From contig NZ_CP147841.1 in the NCBI RefSeq assembly GCF_037335815.1, positions 1,234,591 to 1,298,590 on the forward strand: 64,000 nt of DNA, in the 5' to 3' direction. Source of the stretch: Salinirubellus litoreus (GTDB lineage Archaea > Halobacteriota > Halobacteria > Halobacteriales > Haloarculaceae). The translations under genes were made by a program, and so were the position numbers. A model generated the notes under the pieces. The model was not told where the DNA came from, ran no database searches, and was given only the letters and a program-made list of their open reading frames with translations. Positions 2,699 through 58,486 of the stretch are shown in pieces (the stretch's first letter is position 1; each line of letters opens with the position of its first letter).

Positions 2699-4054
2699 CT
2701 ACACCAGCGGCGTCCCGTCCGCCCGTGGACCGAGCATCGGGCCGTGTGGGCCGTCGCCCTCGACTACGCGGCGGGTCTCGTAGTCCGTCGAGCGCTCGAC
2801 CGGGACGCGACCGATGGCCCGGATCATGTCGACGTACTCCTCCACGGAACGGAACTCCCCGTGCTCCCCGCCCGCGCGCTTGGTGATCTCCTCGGAGAGG
2901 ATGGTCCCCATGAAGTCGTCGGCACCGCAGGAGAGCAGCTTCAGCCCGCGGGCGTCGCCGTACTTCACCCACGAGGACTGGACGTGCTCGACGTTGTCGA
3001 GGTAGAGCCGCGAGACGGCGATCATCAGCTCGTCCTCGGCGTGACTGGCCCCATCCGAGACGAGCCCGCGGTCGTACAGCGGCGTGTCGTGGTGGACGAA
3101 CGAGAGCGGAACGAACTCCGTGATCGCTCCCGTCCGGTCCTGTAAATCCCGTATCCGGTCGAGGTGCATCACCCGGTGCATCTCGTTCTCGACGTGGCCG
3201 TACATGATCGTCGAGGTCGTGGGGAGCCCGACGTTCGCCGCGGCCTCCATCGCCTCGAGCCACTCCGCGGTGTCGATCTTCCCCGGACAGATGACCTCGC
3301 GCACCTCGTCGACGAGTATCTCCGCTGCGGTACCTGGAACGGAATCGAGTCCGGCCTCCTTCAGCGTCCCGTAGATCTCCTCGTAGGAGCGGTCGGTCCC
3401 CCGGCGGGCGTGGTAGGCCTCCTCGGGCGTCATCGAGTGGAGGTGGACGCCACCCACACTCATCGCCTCCATCTGCTCGACGTACGTCCCGGGGTCGACC
3501 TCGTACGCCTCCGGGGGTCGGTAGTTCGGCGGGTCGGCCATCGATTCGAGCCACTCGCGGTGGTCCGAATCGAGGACGAACGCGGGGTGGAGCCCCGAGA
3601 CCGACGTCACCTCGTAGATGCCCCGACCGAGGTGTTCCTCGACGATCTCCCGGGCCTCGGCCGGCGTCTTCGTGAACCCGCCGTCGCCGTGCTCGCCGTC
3701 GTACCCCTCCTCGAACGAGCCGGCGGGGTCCTTGAAGTTACAGAACAGACACCCCGTGTTGCAGGCCGTGGTGACGTTGTTGTTGAGGTTGACGACGAAC
3801 GTGACCTCCTCGCCGACGACCTCGGCCCGCCGGCGGTCCGCGGCCTCCAGAACCCGTTCCTTGCGTCGCGGATCGATCCCCTCGACGTCGGTTCCGGTGG
3901 TCATGAGTTCGACGCCGTCGGCGACGGTCAGCCGCTCGCCCGCGCGGGCCCTCGCAAGCGCGTCCTCGAACGACTGGTCGGTCTCGGGGACGTGTTCGAA
4001 GTCGAACTCCCCCCGCGGAACGTTTGTCCGTGCCGACGTCTCGAACGCGTCCAT
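2699..4054 (-). CDS. cofH: radical SAM FO synthase subunit CofH (7,8-didemethyl-8-hydroxy-5-deazariboflavin synthase subunit 2)
   Basis: CNTGCLFCNF radical-SAM cysteine motif, ~450 aa, archaeal F420 pathway; ATG (MDAFETS) at complement 4052-4054, GTG alternative at 4069. Confidence 0.65.
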   Translation of the reverse strand: MDAFETSARTNVPRGEFDFEHVPETDQSFEDALARARAGERLTVADGVELMTTGTDVEGIDPRRKERVLEAADRRRAEVVGEEVTFVVNLNNNVTTACNTGCLFCNFKDPAGSFEEGYDGEHGDGGFTKTPAEAREIVEEHLGRGIYEVTSVSGLHPAFVLDSDHREWLESMADPPNYRPPEAYEVDPGTYVEQMEAMSVGGVHLHSMTPEEAYHARRGTDRSYEEIYGTLKEAGLDSVPGTAAEILVDEVREVICPGKIDTAEWLEAMEAAANVGLPTTSTIMYGHVENEMHRVMHLDRIRDLQDRTGAITEFVPLSFVHHDTPLYDRGLVSDGASHAEDELMIAVSRLYLDNVEHVQSSWVKYGDARGLKLLSCGADDFMGTILSEEITKRAGGEHGEFRSVEEYVDMIRAIGRVPVERSTDYETRRVVEGDGPHGPMLGPRADGTPLV

Positions 4055-4074
4055 ACCCCCTCCGTTCACCTGAA

Positions 4075-4090
4075 GGGTAAAAACCCACCG
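4075..4090 (-). promoter_or_regulatory. putative TATA-like promoter element (coding-strand GGGTTTTTAC) about 23 nt upstream of cofH ATG; same architecture upstream of glycosyltransferase gene at 5193-5205
   Basis: ttttta-like box centred about -27 from ATG, consistent with leaderless haloarchaeal transcripts; motif CCGGT..GGGTTTTT(A/G) shared by both upstream regions. Confidence 0.3.
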
Positions 4091-4129
4091 GCGTCGGCGA
4101 GCTCGTTCGTGGGTCCCCGCTCACCGTCG

Positions 4130-5170
4130 CTACTCCGCGCCGGCCTCCCGGTAGCAGTCGAGCCACCGCTCGGCGATCGCCCCCCGATCGAACGCCTCGA
4201 AGGAGTCGTCGAACGTCCACTCCGGATAGTCGCCCGCGTCGACGATGGCGTCCTCGATCTCCTCGGGCGTCGTCGCACGGAACCCCCGCTCGCGCCGCTC
4301 GACGAGTTCGTGGGCCGCCGAGTCCTCCTGGTACTCGACGATACCCACGCAGCCGCAGGCCATCGCCCACAGCAGCTCCGTCGCGAACGGCTCCCACGTC
4401 GCGGTGTGGACGAAGACGTGAGCGGCCCGGTAGCGCGCGATGCGTTCCTCCCGCGAGAGGTCGCCGACGAACGTCACGCGGTCGTCGATACGGAGGTCCG
4501 CGACCTGCGCCTCGTAGGCCTCGCGCTCGGGACCGTCGCCGATCACCGTCGCCGTCCAGTCCCGACCCCGGAGTTCGGCGAGCGCCAGAAATAGCGATCC
4601 GAGGTTGGCCGACCCGTCGAGGTGTCGTCCGGCGACGATGTCGGTCCCGCCGGCCGGCTCGGTCGAGTGGATCAGCGAGGTGTCGAGCATCTCCGGGACC
4701 ACCCGGGTTCGCTCCTCGCCCGCGCCGAATTCGCGCACCCACGTCTCGACCAGCCGCGAGGGGGCGACGACCCGGTCGCCGGCCCGGGCAGCCCGTCGGA
4801 TCAGTCGGCCGGTCGGATCGTCGCCGTACCAGTCGACGATCAGGGGGGCCCGTGCCAGCCGTGCGCCCGCCCTGGCGGCGAGGACGGCCGCCGGCGGGGC
4901 CGGCCGCGCGTGGACGACGTCGGGACGGTCGACGGCGAGCAGCCCCGCGATCCGCGAGACGAACGAGACGTCCGCCGGCGAGACCGTGACCGCCCGGTAG
5001 CGGACGCCCTCGCGCTCGCGGTACTCGTCGTAGCCATCCCACCACCCCGTACAGTAGACGGTGACCTCGTGGCCCCGTTCGGCGAGCTCGCGGGCCACCC
5101 GCTCGGTCCGGGCGACGCCGTCCCGGTCGACGTACCGGCCAGTCCGCGAGGCGACGACGACGACCTGCAT
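4130..5170 (-). CDS. glycosyltransferase family 4 (GT-B, RfaB-like)
   Basis: 346-aa ORF with two Rossmann-like halves, C-terminal EPFATELLWAMACGCVGIV motif typical of GT4 (E-x7-E region). Confidence 0.75.
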   Translation of the reverse strand: MQVVVVASRTGRYVDRDGVARTERVARELAERGHEVTVYCTGWWDGYDEYREREGVRYRAVTVSPADVSFVSRIAGLLAVDRPDVVHARPAPPAAVLAARAGARLARAPLIVDWYGDDPTGRLIRRAARAGDRVVAPSRLVETWVREFGAGEERTRVVPEMLDTSLIHSTEPAGGTDIVAGRHLDGSANLGSLFLALAELRGRDWTATVIGDGPEREAYEAQVADLRIDDRVTFVGDLSREERIARYRAAHVFVHTATWEPFATELLWAMACGCVGIVEYQEDSAAHELVERRERGFRATTPEEIEDAIVDAGDYPEWTFDDSFEAFDRGAIAERWLDCYREAGAE

Positions 5171-5775: not shown

Positions 5776-6630
5776 TCAGAGTACCCCTCGCCCGCCGGCG
5801 ATCCCGAAGGTCGCCCGCGCCTCGAACGGTCGGTCCTCGCCGCTCGCCGGTCCGAACTCGCAGACCGCGTTCGCCGACCGGACGTCGCGGGCGATCCCCT
5901 GCCACGCGACGCCGAACCGACCGTCCCCTCCCGTTCGCCCCCCGTCGTCGGGAGCGATACCGCCACCGTGGAGCGGCGTCCGACCGGAGGGCCCGCGCTC
6001 GCCCAGCGAGACCGGGACGGGACCCTCGCGGAACGCACCCCGGGGCGCGTAGCCGTCGAGGGTCCATCCACGACCGGCCGCCGCGCCCACCGAGACCCGG
6101 GTCACGCTCGCCCGCCCGAGGCCCCCGTCCGGCTGGTCGGCCCGCGCTCCGGCCCAGAGCCACACCCGGTAGGCGTGCTCGTCGCCGTCGAGGCGGTAGA
6201 CGACCACGGCGACGTCGGCGCTCACCCACGACTCGGGAACTCCGCTCCCGTCGTCGCCGGGCACCGAGATCGAGTCGCGGTACGCCCCCACGTAGGTCGG
6301 TCCGTCGACTCCCGGTTCCTCGCTCTGCCCCCAGACGCCGTGCTCGCCGTAGGTCCCCGCGAGCGAGGCCACCTCCGGTCCGAACCCGTCCTCGAACGCG
6401 AGCCGCTCGGTCGTGAGGGCGACGTCGGCGTTCGACTCCCCCGAGGAGCCGAGCGCGGAGAGACAGCCGGACGTGGCGGAGAGCCCGCCACCAGCGAGAG
6501 CAAGCAGGGCACGGCGCGAGCACGCCGACGGCGACGACGTGGTGCGGGGGTCGGGCGGCGAGTCCGATCTGACACGAGGACCGGACGCGTCGGAGGGGCT
6601 GGAGGGCTGGCGCGACACGTCAGCGATCAC
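5776..6630 (-). CDS. Tat-signal lipoprotein, Gly-rich hypothetical secreted protein
   Basis: SRRALLALAGGGLSATSGC twin-arginine motif followed by lipobox-like cysteine; opposite/overlapping frames are R-rich junk; true start (GTG/ATG) within first 40 codons uncertain. Confidence 0.5.
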   Translation of the reverse strand: MIADVSRQPSSPSDASGPRVRSDSPPDPRTTSSPSACSRRALLALAGGGLSATSGCLSALGSSGESNADVALTTERLAFEDGFGPEVASLAGTYGEHGVWGQSEEPGVDGPTYVGAYRDSISVPGDDGSGVPESWVSADVAVVVYRLDGDEHAYRVWLWAGARADQPDGGLGRASVTRVSVGAAAGRGWTLDGYAPRGAFREGPVPVSLGERGPSGRTPLHGGGIAPDDGGRTGGDGRFGVAWQGIARDVRSANAVCEFGPASGEDRPFEARATFGIAGGRGVL

Positions 6631-6722
6631 GGTGCGGTCGGCTATCGGCCTTTCGACCGCGCTCTCCCCCTTTTCCCTACCGGGCGCAACGACTTTCCAC
6701 CGCGCGCGGCAGTCCCCGGTAC

Positions 6723-8519
6723 ATGAAACAGCTCGAACGGTACCTCAACGTCCGGAGTGCGTACGGGGCGTCGGTCGCCCCCGACGGTACCGTGGCGTTC
6801 CTGATGGACACGACCGGCACCCCGCAGGTGTGGACGCTCGATTCACCGGGGGCGTGGCCGGAACAGCGGACCTTCTACGACGAGCGGGTGACGTTCTGCA
6901 GCTACTCGTCCGCTCGACCGGAACTCGCCTTCGGGATGGACGACGGCGGCAACGAGCGCGAGCAGCTCTTCCGGCTGGACCCGGACGGATCCGTCGTCGA
7001 TCTGACGCGGCACCCCGACGCCAAACACTACTGGGGTGGCTGGTCGAACGACGGCGAGCGGTTCGCCTTCGCCTCCAACCGGCGCGACGAGTCCGTCTTC
7101 GACGTCTACGTCCAGGACCGCGACGCCGTGGGCGAGAACGCCGAACTCGTCTTCGAGGGCGACGGTATCTACTCGGTGGGCGGGTTCTCGCCCGACGACC
7201 GTCACCTCGTCCTGCTGGAGAGCCACTCGAACTTCGACGCCGACGTCCACGCCCTCGACGTCGAGACCGGCGAGAAGACCCACCTCACCCCCCACCAGGG
7301 CGACGTCCGCTACGGCGGCATCGAGTGGGGTCCCGACGGGTCGCTCTACGTCGTCACCGACGACGGGACGGACCTGCTCTACCTCGCCCGGCTCACCCTC
7401 GACGCACACCTCGACACGGTAGTTCGGGACGAGGCGTGGAACGTCGACGGGGTGGCCATCGATCACGACACGGGGCGGCTGGTCTACTCGCGGAACGTCG
7501 ACGGCTACACCGACCTCACGGTCGGCGAGTTCTCGGACCCGACCGAGATCGACACCTTTCCCGCGCCGGACCTCCCCGAGGGCGTGGCGGGCGGCGTCTC
7601 GTTCGGCTCGGAGGGCGAGCGGTTCGCCTGCTCTGCCTCCGGGTCGACGACGAACACGAACGTCTACGTCGTCGAGGTCGAGAGCGGGGAGACCGAGCCG
7701 TGGACCCGTGCCTCGACCGCTGGCATCGATCCCGGAACGTTCCGCCCGCGCGAACTCGTCCGCGTCGAGTCGTTCGACGGACGCGAGATCCCCGCGTACC
7801 TCTCGCTCCCCGCCGAAGTCCCGGAGGGGGGTGCCCCCGTGGTGGTCGACGTCCACGGTGGGCCAGAGTCACAGCGCCGACCGTCGTTCGGTTCGCTGGG
7901 ACAGTACTTCCTCTCGAACGGCTACGCGATGTTCGAGCCGAACGTCCGGGGCTCCACGGGGTACGGGAAGGCCTACTCCCGGCTCGACGACGTGAGAGAT
8001 CGGATGGACTCGGTGAAGGACCTGAAAGCGGGGGCGGAGTTCCTCGCCGGCCACCCGGATATCGACGGCGACCGCGTGGTGGTGATGGGCGGCTCCTACG
8101 GTGGATTCATGGTGCTCGCGGCGCTCACCGAGTACCCCGACCTGTGGGCCGCGGGCGTCGATATCGTGGGTATCGCGAACTTCGTGACGTTCCTCGAGAA
8201 CACGGGGTCCTGGCGGCGCGAGCACCGCGAGGCCGAGTACGGCTCGCTGGAGGTGGACCGGGAGTTCCTCGAATCGATCAGTCCGCTCCACGGCGCGGAT
8301 CGCATCCGCGCGCCGCTGTTCGTCATCCACGGCGCGAACGACCCGCGGGTGCCGGTCGGCGAGGCCGAGCAGATCGCCGAGGCCGCGAGCGAACACGTCC
8401 CCGTCGAGAAGCTGATCTTCGAGGACGAGGGCCACGGCCTCTCGAAGCGCGAGAACCGCATCGAGGCCTACACGCGGGTCGTCGAGTTCCTCGACGAGCA
8501 CGTCCGAGCGGGATCGTAG
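6723..8519 (+). CDS. S9 family serine peptidase (prolyl oligopeptidase/acylaminoacyl-peptidase-like) with N-terminal beta-propeller
   Basis: 598 aa; catalytic GGSYGG nucleophile elbow, C-terminal alpha/beta hydrolase with D and H (HGANDPRV); ATG at 6723. Confidence 0.85.
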   Translation: MKQLERYLNVRSAYGASVAPDGTVAFLMDTTGTPQVWTLDSPGAWPEQRTFYDERVTFCSYSSARPELAFGMDDGGNEREQLFRLDPDGSVVDLTRHPDAKHYWGGWSNDGERFAFASNRRDESVFDVYVQDRDAVGENAELVFEGDGIYSVGGFSPDDRHLVLLESHSNFDADVHALDVETGEKTHLTPHQGDVRYGGIEWGPDGSLYVVTDDGTDLLYLARLTLDAHLDTVVRDEAWNVDGVAIDHDTGRLVYSRNVDGYTDLTVGEFSDPTEIDTFPAPDLPEGVAGGVSFGSEGERFACSASGSTTNTNVYVVEVESGETEPWTRASTAGIDPGTFRPRELVRVESFDGREIPAYLSLPAEVPEGGAPVVVDVHGGPESQRRPSFGSLGQYFLSNGYAMFEPNVRGSTGYGKAYSRLDDVRDRMDSVKDLKAGAEFLAGHPDIDGDRVVVMGGSYGGFMVLAALTEYPDLWAAGVDIVGIANFVTFLENTGSWRREHREAEYGSLEVDREFLESISPLHGADRIRAPLFVIHGANDPRVPVGEAEQIAEAASEHVPVEKLIFEDEGHGLSKRENRIEAYTRVVEFLDEHVRAGS

Positions 8520-32685: not shown

Positions 32686-33306
32686 ATGGGAGAGGAGCGG
32701 GGGGTAGACGAGTCCAAGCGGTCGACGCTCCGGCGGTTCGCGGCGCTCGGAGCGGCGAGCCCCCTGACGCGACTCGCCGGCGACGGATCGAGCGGTAGCG
32801 CCTCGAGTTCGAACGTCCGCGACGCCATCCTCGGTTACCTGGCGACGACGCCCGGCGCGCACTTCTCGAAGCTCCGCGACGACCTCAAACTCGGGACCGG
32901 CGAGACCCAGCACCACCTCCGCCGGCTCGAGGAGCGCGGGACCGTCGAGTCCAGACGCGACGGCGACTACCGCCGGTTCTTCCCCGCCGGGCGCTTCTCG
33001 GCGTTCGAGCAGGACGCGCTCGGCTACCTCCGGCGCGGGACCGCCCGGGGGATGGTGCTCGCGCTCCTTCGCGACCCGGACGCCTCGGGCGGTGACCTCG
33101 CCGAGACCCTGGACGTCTCGCGCTCGACCGTCTCGAAGTACGCGGCCGAACTCGACTCGGCGGGTCTGCTCTCCCGCGAGGACGGCTACGCGCTCGAACG
33201 GCCGGAAGCCCTGCTGATGCTCGTCGTCAGGTACGCGGACTCGTTCGGACCCGACGCCGTCGCGTTCGCGAGCGAGGCCGCCGAGTACGTGAGATACGAC
33301 GGCTGA
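32686..33306 (+). CDS. winged helix-turn-helix DNA-binding protein (two wHTH-like segments)
   Basis: ATG verified at 32686; HFSKLRDDLKLGTGETQHHLRRLEERGTVES and GGDLAETLDVSRSTVSKYAAELDSAGLL wHTH segments; N-terminal SKRSTLRRFAALGAAS twin-arginine-like motif. Confidence 0.6.
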   Translation: MGEERGVDESKRSTLRRFAALGAASPLTRLAGDGSSGSASSSNVRDAILGYLATTPGAHFSKLRDDLKLGTGETQHHLRRLEERGTVESRRDGDYRRFFPAGRFSAFEQDALGYLRRGTARGMVLALLRDPDASGGDLAETLDVSRSTVSKYAAELDSAGLLSREDGYALERPEALLMLVVRYADSFGPDAVAFASEAAEYVRYDG

Positions 33307-33371
33307 GGCGTGCGATCACGCGGGACGGTCGAGCGTGCGGGGGAGGGCCGAATCGGGGATGGAGGCGGACT

Positions 33372-33450
33372 GTACGGACGGTTGTAGTCTTTTACCGATG
33401 ACCGCCGACCCGACCGGACGATCATCGGTACATCGTTACACCCGTCCGTA
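33372..33450. repeat. nested-hairpin element at convergent gene junction (copy 1); partner at 35531-35620
   Basis: outer stem TACGGACGG (33373-33381)/CCGTCCGTA (33442-33450), inner stem TACCGATGA (33393-33401)/TCATCGGTA (33422-33430), 20-nt loop CCGCCGACCCGACCGGACGA; abuts stop codon of minus-strand gene (TCA at 33451). Confidence 0.5.
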
Positions 33451-33693
33451 TCAGACCGTCACCTTCCAGGTCGTCCCCGAGGAGTAGCCCCACTTCTCGA
33501 CCTCGACGTCGAACTCGCCGTCGCGGATAGCGGTCATGTTCGTCCCGACCTCCTTCGCCGAGAGCCCGAGCTCCTCGCCGATGAGCCGTGACTTGAAGTA
33601 GGTCTTCATCGCCGCCTGCTCCCGCAGGTACTGGAGGATTCGTCGCTGCTTGTCGGTCAGGTCCCCGCCGGTCGCCGCCGCGGTGGCGCTCAT
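33451..33693 (-). CDS. small HTH-like haloarchaeal protein (80 aa)
   Basis: MSATAAATGGDLTDKQRRILQYLREQAAMKTYFKSRLIGEELGLSAKEVGTNMTAIRDGEF... HTH segment, ATG start. Confidence 0.55.
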   Translation of the reverse strand: MSATAAATGGDLTDKQRRILQYLREQAAMKTYFKSRLIGEELGLSAKEVGTNMTAIRDGEFDVEVEKWGYSSGTTWKVTV

Positions 33694-33895
33694 GGAGATA
33701 CGGTGGGGACGACCACACCTATACGGTTTGGTACGTCGGGTAAAACGCCGCGCAGTCGTGCGATTTCGTCCGAAATACCGCAGCCAGTCACCCCTGCATC
33801 CCGCGGCTCCCCGGTCGGACGGGGGGGCTTGGTACGGCAGGGAAACGCCCGATCCGACGGGTGCACGGTCGGGGTTCGGGACCGGTCCGAGCGGA

Positions 33896-34954
33896 TCAGA
33901 TGACGTCGGTCACCGTCGCGGCCTCGACGGCCGCCTCCTCGCTGACGCCGTCGCCGAGGATGGTGTAGCGGTCGCGGATGGAGTGTGCGGTGGTCATCGC
34001 CTCGACCATCGTCTCGGGATCGACGCCGAGCCCCTCCGCGGTGGTCGGCGCGCCGATGCTCCGCAGGGCGTCCCGCACCTGTCGCCACTCGCCGTCCTCG
34101 CCGCTGTGGAGGTACTCGGTGAGTATCGATCCGACGCCGACCTGGTGGCCGTGGAGCGCCTGCCCGGGCGCGATGCGGTCGAGCTGGTGGGAGATGAGGT
34201 GCTCCGCGCCCGACGCCGGCCGGGAGGAGCCCGCGATGGACATCGCCACACCCGAGGAGACCAGCGCCTTGACGACCACCCACGCGCTCTCCTCTAACCC
34301 CTGTTTGATCGAGTCCGCGTTGCCGACGAGCATCTCGGCGGTCATCTGCGAGAGCGCGCCCGCGTACTCGGAGTACTCGACGTTCTTGAGCCGGTGGGCG
34401 AGCTGCCAGTCCTTCACCGCGGTGTAGTTCGAGATGATGTCCGCACACCCCGCGGTCGTGAGCCGCCAGGGGGCGTCGGCGAGCACCTCCGTGTCGGCGA
34501 TGACGGCTACCGGTGGGTCGGCCGCGACCGAGTGGCGGGTGTCCCCCTCCGGGACGCTCCCGCGCCCGGAGACGATGCCGTCGTGGCTCGCCGCCGTCGG
34601 GACGGAGACGAGCGCGCGGTCGACGCGGTCGGCCGCCATCTTCGCGATGTCGATGGGCTTGCCGCCGCCGATGCCGACGAGGAATCCCACCTCCTCGCGC
34701 TCGGCCCGCTCGATGACCCGCTCGACCTCCGCGAACGAGGCGTCCTCGACGACGATCCGGACGGGGTCGTGGCCGGCGTCGGCGAACGCCGCGGCCACCC
34801 GGTCGCCGGCGAGCTCGTTCGGCGTCGGCGAGGTGACGACCAGCGGCCGGCCGTCGAGGTAGAGGTCCTCGACCGCCTCGACGGTCCGGTCGAGGACGCC
34901 GTGACCCACCACCACGTCCCGCGGGAGGCGGATCCACGTCGATTTCCGGAACAT
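33896..34954 (-). CDS. egsA: sn-glycerol-1-phosphate dehydrogenase [NAD(P)+] (archaeal lipid backbone synthesis)
   Basis: ATG verified; 352 aa; GIGGGKPIDIAK glycine-rich NAD(P)-binding loop and DHQS-like fold His ligands (HGHQVG) typical of G1PDH. Confidence 0.85.
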   Translation of the reverse strand: MFRKSTWIRLPRDVVVGHGVLDRTVEAVEDLYLDGRPLVVTSPTPNELAGDRVAAAFADAGHDPVRIVVEDASFAEVERVIERAEREEVGFLVGIGGGKPIDIAKMAADRVDRALVSVPTAASHDGIVSGRGSVPEGDTRHSVAADPPVAVIADTEVLADAPWRLTTAGCADIISNYTAVKDWQLAHRLKNVEYSEYAGALSQMTAEMLVGNADSIKQGLEESAWVVVKALVSSGVAMSIAGSSRPASGAEHLISHQLDRIAPGQALHGHQVGVGSILTEYLHSGEDGEWRQVRDALRSIGAPTTAEGLGVDPETMVEAMTTAHSIRDRYTILGDGVSEEAAVEAATVTDVI

Positions 34955-35171
34955 ACCCGAGATGACGGCGGCACGCGTTTAACGGTTCCCTCCCCTCGCT
35001 CCGTTCGTCCGTCACGAGGGGTCGCTACGCGGTCCCTCGAACGGCTCCGATCGCTCACCGCCACTCGACCGAACCGAGCGCGACCACCGAACACGCCGTC
35101 TCGCCCTCCAGTCGGCCGGCGAGCGCCCGTGCCGGCCGAAAGCTGTTAGTAGTCCTACCTTTGATGCTAAC

Positions 35172-35519
35172 GTGCCGGGCGTGGTCTCGGGGGGACGCTC
35201 CACGACCGGGGGGAACGTGGAGGAGAACGAGAACGATCGGCAGGTGTCGGGACGGAGGACGGCGCCGGGAGCCCTCTACGCCAGTGCGGACGCCGTCGCG
35301 GTCGACTTCACCCGCGACGGGTACCGTACGGTGTTCGTGGAGGTCGGACCGGACGCCGACGAGGAGTGGCGACTGGTGGCCGAACGGCTCGGGTACACCG
35401 TCGAGGGGCCGGGCACGGACGTCTACCGGCGGTGGCGGGTCGAGGAGTGGTGGGAGGGTTCGGCCGAGGCCGTTCACGTCCTCCGGCTGGACCCCGACCG
35501 CGAGCCGCTGCGGCTGTAG
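35172..35519 (+). CDS. hypothetical small acidic protein
   Basis: GTG start (35172 or 35218); C-terminal 80 aa GC3-rich and acidic (DFTRDGYRTVFVEVGPDADEEWRLVAERLGYTVEGPGTDVYRRWRVEEWWEG). Confidence 0.35.
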   Translation: MPGVVSGGRSTTGGNVEENENDRQVSGRRTAPGALYASADAVAVDFTRDGYRTVFVEVGPDADEEWRLVAERLGYTVEGPGTDVYRRWRVEEWWEGSAEAVHVLRLDPDREPLRL

Positions 35520-35530
35520 TCACGGCGCTC

Positions 35531-35620
35531 GTACGGACGGCTGTAGTCCTCTACCGGTGACCGTCGGCCCCGCCCGGACGAGCCCGGTGGTCACTTGGTA
35601 GATCGCCACGACCGTGCGTA
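35531..35620. repeat. nested-hairpin element at convergent gene junction (copy 2)
   Basis: GTACGGACGG...CCGTGCGTA outer stem (8/9), TACCGGTGACC...GGTCAC-TT-GGTA inner stem with compensatory substitutions relative to copy 1; flanked by GCTGTAGTC as in copy 1 (GTTGTAGTC); abuts stop of epimerase gene (TCA 35621). Confidence 0.5.
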
Positions 35621-36610
35621 TCAGACGGTGTCGAGTATCGAGAGCACGCCCTCCTCGGCCTCGCGGTCCGGGCCGTTCTCCCGACCCGTCCGCTCGGAGT
35701 CGCGGTGGTCGGCGACCGTCGCCGCGAGCGCCGTCCCGTGGTCGGTCGAGCCCCACCCGAGCGACCGGAGCTTCGTCGTCGAGAGCAGGTGGGGATACTC
35801 CCGGTAGAGCGGGAAATCGGCGAGTTCGAGGTCGGCGGCCGCCAGTTCGCGGGGACCGGCGAACACCCGCTCGACCGCCGTGTCGCAGGCCTCCGCGATA
35901 CGATCGACCCACTCGCCGAGCGTCGGGGCGTGGCCGTCGCCGACGTTGTACGTCTCGCCCGGCTCGCCCGCCTCGGCGACCGTCCGGAGCGCACGCGCGA
36001 CGTCCCCGACGTAGACGAGGTGCCAGAGGTTCGTCCCGTCGCCCGGGACGACCACCCGGTCGAAGTTCTCGACGCGGTCGATCCAGTAGTCGAACCGCTC
36101 GGTGTAGTCGTGCGGGCCGTAGATCACGGGCGGTCGGACGCTCATCGCGTTCACGCCCCGCTCCGCGGCCTCGTACACCGCGCGGTCGCCCTCGGCCTTC
36201 CGCGGGCCGTAGCTGTCCCAGGAGTCGTCGACCGCCTGCTCGGGCGTGCAGTCGTGGAGCGGCGTCTCGTCCTCGCGCTTGGGGATCCGGTTCGCGCCGT
36301 AGGCGGCCCCCGAGGAGACGTAGACGTAGGCGTCGGCGTCCGCGAACGCCTCCGTGGCGACCCGGACCTCCCGGGGGTGGTAGGCCACGCAGTCGATGAC
36401 CACGTCCGGGTCGACCTCCATCGACAGCCGCTTCACCTCCCCCTCGACCGTCCGGTCGCCCTCGACGCGTTCCACCCGGTCGTCGTCGGCGAACGGGTTC
36501 TCGCTGTTCCCGCGGTTGAATATCGTCACCTCGTAGCCGGCGTCGAGGAACTCCTCGACGGTGTGTCGACCGACGAACCGCGTCCCGCCGACGACGAGCG
36601 CTCGTGTCAT
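35621..36610 (-). CDS. NAD-dependent epimerase/dehydratase (extended SDR)
   Basis: ATG at complement 36608-36610; VVGGTRFVGRH Rossmann motif, YxxxK (YGPRKAEGDRA), 329 aa. Confidence 0.85.
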   Translation of the reverse strand: MTRALVVGGTRFVGRHTVEEFLDAGYEVTIFNRGNSENPFADDDRVERVEGDRTVEGEVKRLSMEVDPDVVIDCVAYHPREVRVATEAFADADAYVYVSSGAAYGANRIPKREDETPLHDCTPEQAVDDSWDSYGPRKAEGDRAVYEAAERGVNAMSVRPPVIYGPHDYTERFDYWIDRVENFDRVVVPGDGTNLWHLVYVGDVARALRTVAEAGEPGETYNVGDGHAPTLGEWVDRIAEACDTAVERVFAGPRELAAADLELADFPLYREYPHLLSTTKLRSLGWGSTDHGTALAATVADHRDSERTGRENGPDREAEEGVLSILDTV

Positions 36611-36722
36611 ACGCCCCCCTCCCCCGGCGGGGCAAAAAACACCACGGGACGGTCCGAACTGTCCGACTCCGCGCGGCCTCCAAGGTTTATTACGCCGCTT
36701 TGCGTGCCGGACGCGTGAGGAC

Positions 36723-36869
36723 ATGAGTCACGGCCCGCGGGATCACCTCGACGACGCGCCGCCGGAGCGGGTCCCCGGCGGGCTCAAGGACGGGACGGCC
36801 GACGGGACGACGATGGACGACGGGGGCGACGAGGCGGCCGACGGGCCCCGGGACGACGGAGGGGCCTGA
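36723..36869 (+). CDS. very small acidic/disordered hypothetical protein (48 aa)
   Basis: ATG at 36723, ends 17 nt before next gene; D/G-rich; weak. Confidence 0.2.
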   Translation: MSHGPRDHLDDAPPERVPGGLKDGTADGTTMDDGGDEAADGPRDDGGA

Positions 36870-57327: not shown

Positions 57328-57404
57328 TCCAGAGGACCGCGCGAGTCCTCGAGGGCACCGATCACGCCGTCACCCGGCCAGGAGCGACTGTTGCACGATT
57401 TATA

Positions 57405-58486
57405 ATGTCCGCTGGCTTAGCCGTACGGATGGGTGTCGACCGGACACGGCGGGCGATACTGCGGCTCGGTAGCGCCGGTCTCGCCGCCGGGGTCGCGGGG
57501 TGTTCGATCCCGCTCGACGGCGAGGATCGAGGCCGGACGGCCACGGTGACGCCCGCGCCGCTGCCGACGGTCGACGCCGATAGATCCCGGCTGCCGCCGG
57601 TCGGTGCGGTGGTCGAGTTCGGTCCGCTCGAACTGCTCGTCGAGAGCGTCGAGCGCTCCGATCGGGCCACCGTGCTCGGGACCGAGATCAGGCTGGTCGA
57701 CGACGACGAGTTCCTCGCCGTCGAGACCCTCTTTTTGAACACGAGCGATCGGTACCTCGCGGTCGACGTCGACCGGTACGAGGTGGCCCACGGGACGGGG
57801 GTCGCCGAGCCGATCGAGCCGTTCGCCGGGCTCGCCGCGTCGAGCTTCGGTGGCTGGGCGTTCGCGCCGGGCGAGCGACGGCGGGTACGGCTCCACTACA
57901 AGATCCCGCCCAGGGCCGCCGACGCGCGACTCCGCGGGTCGGTTCGGATCCGCTCGCTCCCCGACGAGGCGACTGCCGTCGCCGTCCTCGAGATCGATCT
58001 GACCTCGGTGACTGCCGATTCCACCGGGCTAGAGGGGTCGCTCTCGGCACCGGTTCGCGAGGTCGGCAAGGGGGCCGCCGCGTCCGGGCTCTCGGTGACC
58101 GTCCGCGACGTCGCGGTCCCGGTCGCGGTGCCGAACTGGACGCCGCCTCCCGGACGCGAGCACCTCGCGCTCTCGCTCTCGGTCACGAACGAGGTCGAGC
58201 CCGGGCGACCGATAGTCGTCGCGCTAGGGCGGTTCGGCGGGCTGACGCTGGCCGATCCCCGGGGGACGGCGTTCACCGAGGAGGTCCGGTTCGACGGGAC
58301 GCTCGCGGACGAGCGCCGCTACGACGGCTCGTCGGCGCTCCTCACGGGCGAGACCCGTGAGGGGGTACTGGCGATCCCGGTGCCGGTCGAGGCCTCCCGC
58401 TCTACCTGTTCTGGACGCCGCCGGTCGCGCTCTGGGAGGTCGGGACGGAGGTCGCGATCAACCGGTTCGTCTGGCGGCTCCGCTGA
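57405..58486 (+). CDS. Tat-signal lipoprotein, reading frame broken near 58391-58400 (apparent single-C indel); C-terminus continues in another frame to TGA at 58484-58486
   Basis: MSAGLAVRMGVDRTRRAILRLGSAGLAAGVAGCS (Tat + lipobox); frame 0 loses coding signature after ...VLAIPVPVEA, alternative frame GC3-rich (L)PLYLFWTPPVALWEVGTEVAINRFVWRLR*; track ORF 57087..59894 is a composite. Confidence 0.45.

Follow-up and report, generated by a model that had tools for sequence, protein, structure and literature searches.

Two nested hairpins occupy junctions between convergent genes in a 64-kb stretch of the Salinirubellus litoreus genome (NZ_CP147841.1, positions 1,234,591 to 1,298,590; the whole stretch is called the window), one at 33373-33450 (copy 1, 78 nt; nhmmer E = 1.3e-16) and the other at 35532-35620 (copy 2, 89 nt; nhmmer E = 1.8e-11). 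With a probability of about 0.85, we read them as copies, inserted independently of each other, of a small element that is non-coding, non-autonomous and palindromic over almost its whole length, that resembles a MITE (a miniature transposable element with inverted repeats) or a 'small mobile repeat', and that targets the triplet TGA. Both lie where an earlier note on this DNA had placed them, with the element proper at the positions given above, and neither is assigned to a strand.

On the minus strand, the DUF7123 gene (33451-33693; open reading frame (ORF) with a G+C content at third codon positions, GC3, of 0.95) ends in a TGA stop at 33451-33453, which directly abuts copy 1 and is the proposed insertion target triplet. 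Copy 2 is directly abutted by the TGA stop (35621-35623) of a minus-strand gene for an NAD-dependent epimerase, whose ORF runs from 35621 to 36724 (368 codons, GC3 0.91) and whose NCBI record covers 35621-36610 (329 aa). The TCA found 3′ of both elements is the complement of these minus-strand stops. The fixed relation to a TGA stop that the earlier note had described is borne out, with the correction that the elements abut the stop codon and do not overlap it. On the plus strand, a gene for an HVO_0163-type helix-turn-helix (HTH) regulator (32686-33306) converges on copy 1 and a 115-aa orphan ORF (35172-35519) on copy 2. Their stops lie 65 and 11 nt before the elements, within the approximately 65 nt claimed before; as these distances differ, there is no fixed register on this side and only the minus-strand register is fixed. 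At its distal side copy 1 is flanked by CTG (33370-33372), in the place of the second target triplet of the family and degenerate here, while copy 2 is flanked by TCG (35529-35531), a common 'G-end' variant (TCG...TCA, equivalent to TGA...CGA).

The inverted-repeat arms of copy 1 lie at 33373-33387 (TACGGACGGTTGTAG) and 33436-33450 (TTACACCCGTCCGTA), they enclose an inner stem TTTACCGATGA.../...TCATCGGTA, and the element as a whole begins and ends with TACGGACGGTTGTAGTCTTTTACCGATGA...TCATCGGTACATCGTTACACCCGTCCGTA. The ends of copy 2 match those of copy 1 with mismatches in the outer stem, and its inner stem is longer by approximately 10 nt; copy 2 is the older, more degenerate copy. The nested hairpin of copy 1 is predicted at -43.5 kcal/mol (z = -6.45) and at -47.6 kcal/mol on the opposite strand, that of copy 2 at -47 kcal/mol (z = -2.2) and -50.8 kcal/mol, respectively. 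For the 18-mer shared by both copies, GTACGGACGG[T/C]TGTAGTC, the window has exactly two occurrences where shuffles predict 0.13, and a profile of 26 family members found no third copy in the 64 kb. A segmental duplication as the origin of the pair is ruled out by the unrelated flanks and by a likeness of only ~78% between the copies. The earlier note had named, as an outcome that would undo its proposal, that these two were the only copies and had arisen by local duplication; there are dozens of copies elsewhere.

Some further features of the window touch on the two copies. The 115-aa ORF, situated between the epimerase gene and egsA, is without a Pfam match; its place is occupied by nothing in two of the related loci described below (L084 and L088) and by a DNA methyltransferase in a third (L085), so the junction is variable. 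An exact 11-nt repeat, CGGCTGTAGTC, is present at 35511-35521, spanning the stop of this ORF, and at 35538-35548, inside the 5′ arm of copy 2, an arm that uniquely has C for T at position 10. The repeat could be due to chance, be a remnant of another arm, or reflect repair-templated copying. At 57400-57445 a match to the end repeat with 3 mismatches (CCGTACGGATGGGTGTCGACC) stands just after a TATA-like box (TTTATAATG); it has no matching second arm and was judged a chance match.

A dispersed palindromic family in Halobacteria

The earlier note had suggested a genome-wide search for the shared motif. A scan of 185,579 species genomes with the 18-mer gave 44 matches, namely two complete elements at other loci of one Halobacteriales metagenome-assembled genome (L018 and L035) and 42 chance matches in bacteria, all of which were rejected by the family profile; the pattern was strict and exact, so that the counts are not whole-genome copy numbers. 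A two-arm pattern with unconstrained ends and centre returned 29 loci from hypersaline metagenomes, and BLAST against plasmids added copies in Halomicrobium (seven on pHmuk01), Halostella, Salinibaculum, Natrinema, Halomontanus, Natronorubrum and Haloarcula. In total, the profile search of all fetched sequences distinguishes ~39 loci, which come from the hypersaline metagenomes, the one metagenome-assembled genome and plasmids of Halomicrobium, Halomontanus, Natrinema and Natronorubrum, and the family spans at least eight genera of Halobacteria.

The element is non-coding and 76-89 nt long. All copies carry the 15-nt terminal inverted repeats TACGGACGGTTGTAG / CTACAACCGTCCGTA, the termini TACGG...CCGTA are invariant or nearly so across 39 sequences, and the GT.G within the TTGTAG of the end repeats is invariant. 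Two main subfamilies have the 15-nt ends in common and unrelated inner palindromes, ...TTTACCGGTGAGCGCC / GGCGCTCACCGGTAAA... in subfamily A and ...CCCAGTCGACCGCACG / CGTGCGGTCGATCTGGG... in subfamily B; in some copies the middle of both end repeats is altered together, as in TACGGAGAGTTGTCG...CGACAACTCTCCGTA. A 79-mer identical at 100% occurs at differently flanked loci (L051, L057 and L063).

The earlier description of a conserved nested-hairpin family with compensating changes in the inner stem was accurate, as the window copies differ in the way described and the family is dispersed. The covariation analysis proposed there was carried out on 24 A-type copies: 90.9% of the cells of the hairpin are paired, 14 pairs are changed on both sides, and none of 500 shuffles reaches this level. 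A palindrome maintained as DNA, either by an enzyme that recognises both ends or by templated correction from arm to arm, would be expected to covary just as much, and therefore the covariation makes no specific argument for an RNA function.

Two metagenome loci from different samples, L050 and L077, hold three copies within 1.5 kb at a spacing of ~650-700 bp (2913-4331 and 6045-7461, respectively). This local insertion cluster is interleaved with two paralogous genes for 143-aa membrane proteins. The orthologous copies at L050 4252-4331 and L077 7383-7461 have the same flanks, and they differ in that only the central loop is inverted (CACGACGGCGTG vs CACGCCGTCGTG) with the arms in place, which resembles a flip-flop of the loop by way of the hairpin. 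On pHmuk01, the annotated HMUK_RS17945 (69009-69209) overlaps an element at 69164-69242 and HMUK_RS16855 (119265-119735) another at 119697-119775; these RefSeq hypothetical coding sequences (CDSs) are probably annotation artefacts made by the repeat.

Insertion at TGA and at stop codons

Among 32 oriented copies, 31 have TGA directly before the element; on the other side TGA is found in 21 and CGA in 9, and the rest are near variants. The flank logo contains no target motif beyond TGA, only a codon periodicity upstream of it. We compared the Halomicrobium plasmids pHmuk01 and pLC1Hm-01, both taken whole (446 kb), and found four clean filled/empty pairs in which ~79 bp are precisely inserted, with one TGA/TCA in the empty and two in the filled site. 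At site 87715 of pHmuk01, gatcaacTGA[79 nt]TGAcgccgtcgg stands against gatcaacTGAcgccgtcgg, that is caacTGA[el]TGAcgcc vs caacTGAcgcc, where el is the element. At 202422, accgccTGA[79 nt]TGActgcgcgcgg stands against accgccTGAccgcgcgcgg (cgccTGA[el]TGAc vs cgccTGAc). At 187625, TCG[79 nt]TCAgacgttgcc stands against TCAgacgttgcc (TCG[el]TCAgacg vs TCAgacg), so that TCG...TCA derives from a single TCA. The reverse situation is present at pLC1Hm 123655, where ctcaccTGA[79 nt]TGAtcgaccgtcgacc is filled and ctctcgTGAtccgctgtcgacc in pHmuk01 is empty (caccTGA[el]TGAtcg vs tcgTGAtcc). All four polymorphic targets are annotated stop codons, those of HMUK_RS15915, HMUK_RS16305, HMUK_RS16380 and the MarR gene LC1Hm_RS16485. 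Since the 'G-end' (TCG...TCA, once TGG...CGA) recurs in unrelated copies, one or more of the flanking bases are probably the element's own (terminal R...Y). Beside the stop of a GH2 gene, pHmuk01 has a full element (4602-4680) and pLC1Hm-01 (~166570-166625, L092) has only a decayed half (aaatcgttcacagacgtacagccggtcgtaTCA), which is either an old, eroding copy or a sign of repeated use of the same stop codon.

One copy interrupts a gene for a GNAT acetyltransferase: it lies at a cTGAc that is out of frame (L077 7383-7461, also L050), and removal of the element from the sequence restores ...TIEPL-TLYKYSSHRVD.... Insertion at an out-of-frame TGA indicates that the target is the triplet and not the stop codon as such. 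In the same gene (L077 7247-7988, also L050), the last A of the element and the TG of the duplicated triplet form an ATG that opens a downstream 175-aa ORF, from which, judging by the reading frame, the C-terminal part of the split gene might still be expressed.

The relatives of S. litoreus available for comparison with the window have egsA homologues 93% (L084), 85% (L085 to L087) and 82% (L088) identical at the protein level, the last being Halorarius halobius, the closest named homologue. The epimerase gene and egsA are kept in all of these loci, and the DUF7123 and HTH regulator genes in L084 to L087. The element is absent from the relatives' loci at both sites and throughout ~9 kb; the copy 1 site is empty in L084 and L085, and the copy 2 site after the epimerase stop is empty in L084, L085 and L088. 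Copy 1 is present on metagenome contigs whose DUF7123 protein is identical, and L046, the only one of them that spans the second site, also carries copy 2. Around the DUF7123 stop the sequence of the relatives is GTG TAG GAC and GTC TAG GTC, and that of the window is GTC TGA [element] CAG TCC. Removing GATACGG...CCGTAC on the gene strand gives GTC TAG TCC, with the stop as in the relatives, which hints, from this single site, that the stop at which copy 1 arrived may have been TAG and that the new TGA came with the element. Apart from the element, the locus of the closest relative, L084, contains at 1-1461 a MoxR-type AAA ATPase gene upstream of a DUF58 gene, with a 928-aa product that has intein and LAGLIDADG domain matches; the gene in the same place in Halorarius halobius encodes 318 aa.

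For the position of the copies relative to genes, a stop was taken as credible when the in-frame ORF that it closed had 80 codons or more (30 or more if running off the contig end), with GC3 >= 0.8 and GC3 - GC2 >= 0.2, GC2 being the content at second positions. A strong in-frame stop directly abuts 21/39 copies and a weak one 3 more, which agrees with the placement at gene 3′ ends proposed in the earlier note. The ends of RefSeq CDSs abut the element to the base for 4/7 pHmuk01 copies, for the pLC1Hm copy and for the Halomontanus copy. As a null we used the share of TGA stops among all non-disruptive TGA/TCA sites, with crude gene calls, and it amounts to 4-16%, or to 9-23% if the flanking bases must be G or C. 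The observed 21 of 36 evaluable copies exceed it with a binomial p = 9e-9 against 0.16 and p = 4e-4 against 0.30.

Proposed mechanism and alternative explanations

The reading as a mobile element is based on the observed membership of a family with inverted repeats, on the duplicated target, on sites seen both filled and empty, on the occurrence of both orientations and on the stop-codon excess. We infer that the element is mobilised in trans: an enzyme supplied from elsewhere would insert it into TGA (TCA on the other strand), presumably by transposition, and would leave it flanked by TGA on both sides. Where the target is the stop of a gene, the stop would be rebuilt at the junction and the protein would remain unchanged, which probably accounts for the exact placement of most surviving copies on stops. 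In the window, one insertion would have occurred at the DUF7123 stop and one at the epimerase stop, both after the split from the relatives with 93% identity in egsA. The bias itself would come either from selection or from targeting.

The element shows the properties of a MITE: terminal inverted repeats, a target duplication when compared with empty sites, and small, non-coding, dispersed and similar copies. Prokaryotic MITEs such as Correia/nemis of Neisseria, ERIC/MITEEc1, the haloarchaeal MITEHsal and the HqIRS MITEs are likewise short and non-coding, with terminal inverted repeats and a short, specific target duplication; they too occur as many dispersed, near-identical copies with presence/absence polymorphism, mostly in or next to gene 3′ ends, and form a hairpin when transcribed. 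The usual MITE targets are TA/TNA-type sites. The present element differs from these MITEs in that no matching parent insertion sequence was found, in its TGA target, in its location mostly on stops that are rebuilt, and in being palindromic throughout. A close parallel, compared by description only, are the 'small mobile repeats' (SMR) of Haloquadratum walsbyi, among them HqIRS41 with 79-80 bp and inverted terminal repeats matching in 17/21 positions (PMC3119063), which in strain C23 lies at around 1,517,965-1,518,044 of FR746099. They share with the present element the class (Halobacteria), the size, prominent inverted terminal repeats unlike those of known transposons, and the lack of a known transposase, and their mobilisation was called 'enigmatic'; they are reported to target other mobile elements and to cause no target duplication, whereas our element is flanked by TGA...TGA and its empty sites have a single TGA. 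The host contigs of subfamily B have 58-67% GC and are therefore not Haloquadratum.

Several points weigh against this interpretation. No autonomous element with the same repeats and no nearby candidate transposase was present in the window, the two whole plasmids and the fetched loci (~0.8 Mb). The search for an autonomous partner, made in the window, pHmuk01 and the viral loci with half-sites of the repeat and a tolerance of up to 2-3 mismatches, returned only short elements and isolated chance sites. A link to viruses was not found in IMG/VR either: the two-arm pattern had 0 matches, and the 15 matches of the 15-nt repeat consist of chance matches in low-GC phages and two non-element matches in GC-rich contigs. 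In addition, the size of the duplication is ambiguous and could be 3 bp, 1 bp with element-borne terminal R...Y, or a GA carried by the element. Copy 1 is without a clean duplication (CTG...TCA), and the relatives have TAG, not TGA, at this place. The stop-codon excess is greater than simple TGA targeting followed by loss of gene-disrupting insertions would give; its source is either a preference of the enzyme for gene 3′ ends or selection that removes intergenic insertions on the promoter side, as the rebuilding of stops explains the harmlessness of the insertions and not fully the excess. Finally, selection acting on a hairpin of RNA could be another source of the stem covariation.

The main rival to a MITE moved by a DDE transposase is a single-strand mechanism like that of REPINs or IS200/IS605, which we regard as unlikely. 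Here the element would be REPIN/REP-like or derived from IS200/IS605 elements (PATE-like), a single-stranded DNA hairpin whose mover, an HUH/Y1 enzyme resembling RAYT or TnpA, cuts next to a short specific sequence, and the element itself would include the second TGA. It fits this mechanism that the target is a short, fixed oligonucleotide, that the element resembles a REPIN doublet in forming a single long hairpin, and that the invariant G-T-x-G in TTGTAG/CTACAA recalls the GTAG motif of REPs. The G-end variants TCG...TCA and TGG...CGA, in which at least one flanking base seems to be the element's, point the same way, as does copy 1 of the window, which needs zero extra mutations to fit an element that carries GA and entered behind the T of TAG. 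A DDE partner whose inverted repeats match was not seen. Haloarchaea are rich in IS200/IS605-type elements and PATEs, as documented for Haloquadratum (PMC3119063). However, IS200/IS605-type elements have no terminal inverted repeats and a single orientation to the target, whereas both orientations occur here (10:9), although a near-perfect palindrome could blur this. The comparison with PATEs gives the same picture: these have separate subterminal hairpins without terminal inverted repeats and a fixed orientation to the 5′ target, while the present element has true terminal repeats and a single long hairpin, and its internal asymmetry faces both ways relative to TGA and gene (10:9). A Y1/HUH gene was not noticed in the fetched loci, where no search aimed at such genes was made. 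RAYTs are mainly bacterial, and we know of no REPIN described with a TGA target. REPINs and REPs with their RAYTs resemble the element as extragenic hairpins of ~80-100 nt built from two inverted arms, with a compensated palindrome, a GTAG-like motif and no transposase of their own, and they differ in being bacterial and tied to a single-copy RAYT gene (PMC3116915).

Rather less probable is a stop-codon-homing repeat, which would recognise the 3′ boundary of genes beyond the TGA triplet and carry a terminal (G)A that rebuilds the stop, even turning TAG into TGA. Its mover would be a new archaeal enzyme, possibly HUH/RAYT-like, and the hairpins would have been co-opted as orientation-independent 3′-end or terminator signals; to our knowledge, no hairpin terminators are known in haloarchaea.

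That the family is primarily a functional signal selected at gene ends, as a bidirectional terminator, a stabiliser of mRNA 3′ ends or a processing site, with its spread being secondary or due to convergent recruitment, we consider improbable. Strong hairpins (-43 to -55 kcal/mol) do stand right after stops, often at convergent junctions, the stem covariation is significant, and the stop codons are in excess of the simple null; bacterial palindromic repeats such as REP, Correia and ERIC are known to affect termination or the stability of mRNAs. Close relatives, though, lack the copies at orthologous sites, there are precise insertion polymorphisms, and copies are also found away from genes and, once, inside a gene. 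A bias for the sense strand is seen neither in orientation nor in stability: in the 19 copies that abut a stop, the arms face the gene in one way in 10 and in the other in 9, and the mRNA sense is more stable in 9 and the antisense in 9. The asymmetry of G-U versus A-C pairs likewise contains no signal of an RNA sense. Against all families of Rfam 15, the segment 32500-36500 gave only chance-level matches (E >= 0.3, far below the gathering score), none of which fits the element. Archaeal termination relies on oligo-T, and the earlier note was right that these hairpins are not terminators of that type, as no T-run follows either of them and a scan of 33000-36000 for hairpins plus T-run yielded 0 sites; a promoter scan yielded nothing. 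The natures that the earlier note proposed for the pattern (conserved bidirectional terminator, RNA stability element, small structured RNA) are at odds with the empty orthologous sites and the insertion polymorphism, and further with the two orientations, the even stability of both strands, the gene-interrupting copy and the identical 79-mer at differing flanks. As a by-product of insertion, a hairpin at the first base of a 3′ untranslated region (3′-UTR) could, to judge from its predicted fold, influence 3′-end formation or mRNA stability.

A site of the integron attC type, or another site-specific recombination site that marks gene cassettes, shares with the element an imperfect palindrome with conserved ends, a paired centre variable in sequence and length and a place at the 3′ end of an ORF with the stop at or next to a conserved end, and the three copies ~650-700 bp apart in L050/L077 would suit it, but it is hardly credible since the filled/empty pairs gain only the ~79-bp element, inserted alone as a unit and without a cargo gene, the genes flanking the window copies are core genes syntenic in the relatives, and neither an integrase nor an array context was seen.

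Significance for haloarchaeal genomes

The element belongs to a known kind, the miniature mobile elements; new here is one that is palindromic, inserts into TGA stop codons and restores them. We found no paper that contains the repeat sequence, and in the literature on MITEs and haloarchaea no description of an element that targets TGA; a large MITE census lists many MITEs in Haloarculaceae, and the present family is not described there. For annotation, the hairpins are to be masked or labelled as mobile repeats, and not as small RNA genes, terminators or conserved regulatory motifs; the repeat probably also accounts for spurious small overlapping ORFs, such as HMUK_RS17945 and HMUK_RS16855.

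To land on TGA stops and restore them would be a near-neutral strategy for a transposon, which at the same time gives many 3′-UTRs a strong hairpin right at their beginning. Halomicrobium mukohataei DSM 12286 and strain LC1Hm offer a natural experiment in this respect, with four genes that differ by the presence of the element alone. The family also provides a handle on a mobilisation mechanism that is unsolved for the 'small mobile repeats' of Haloquadratum as well.

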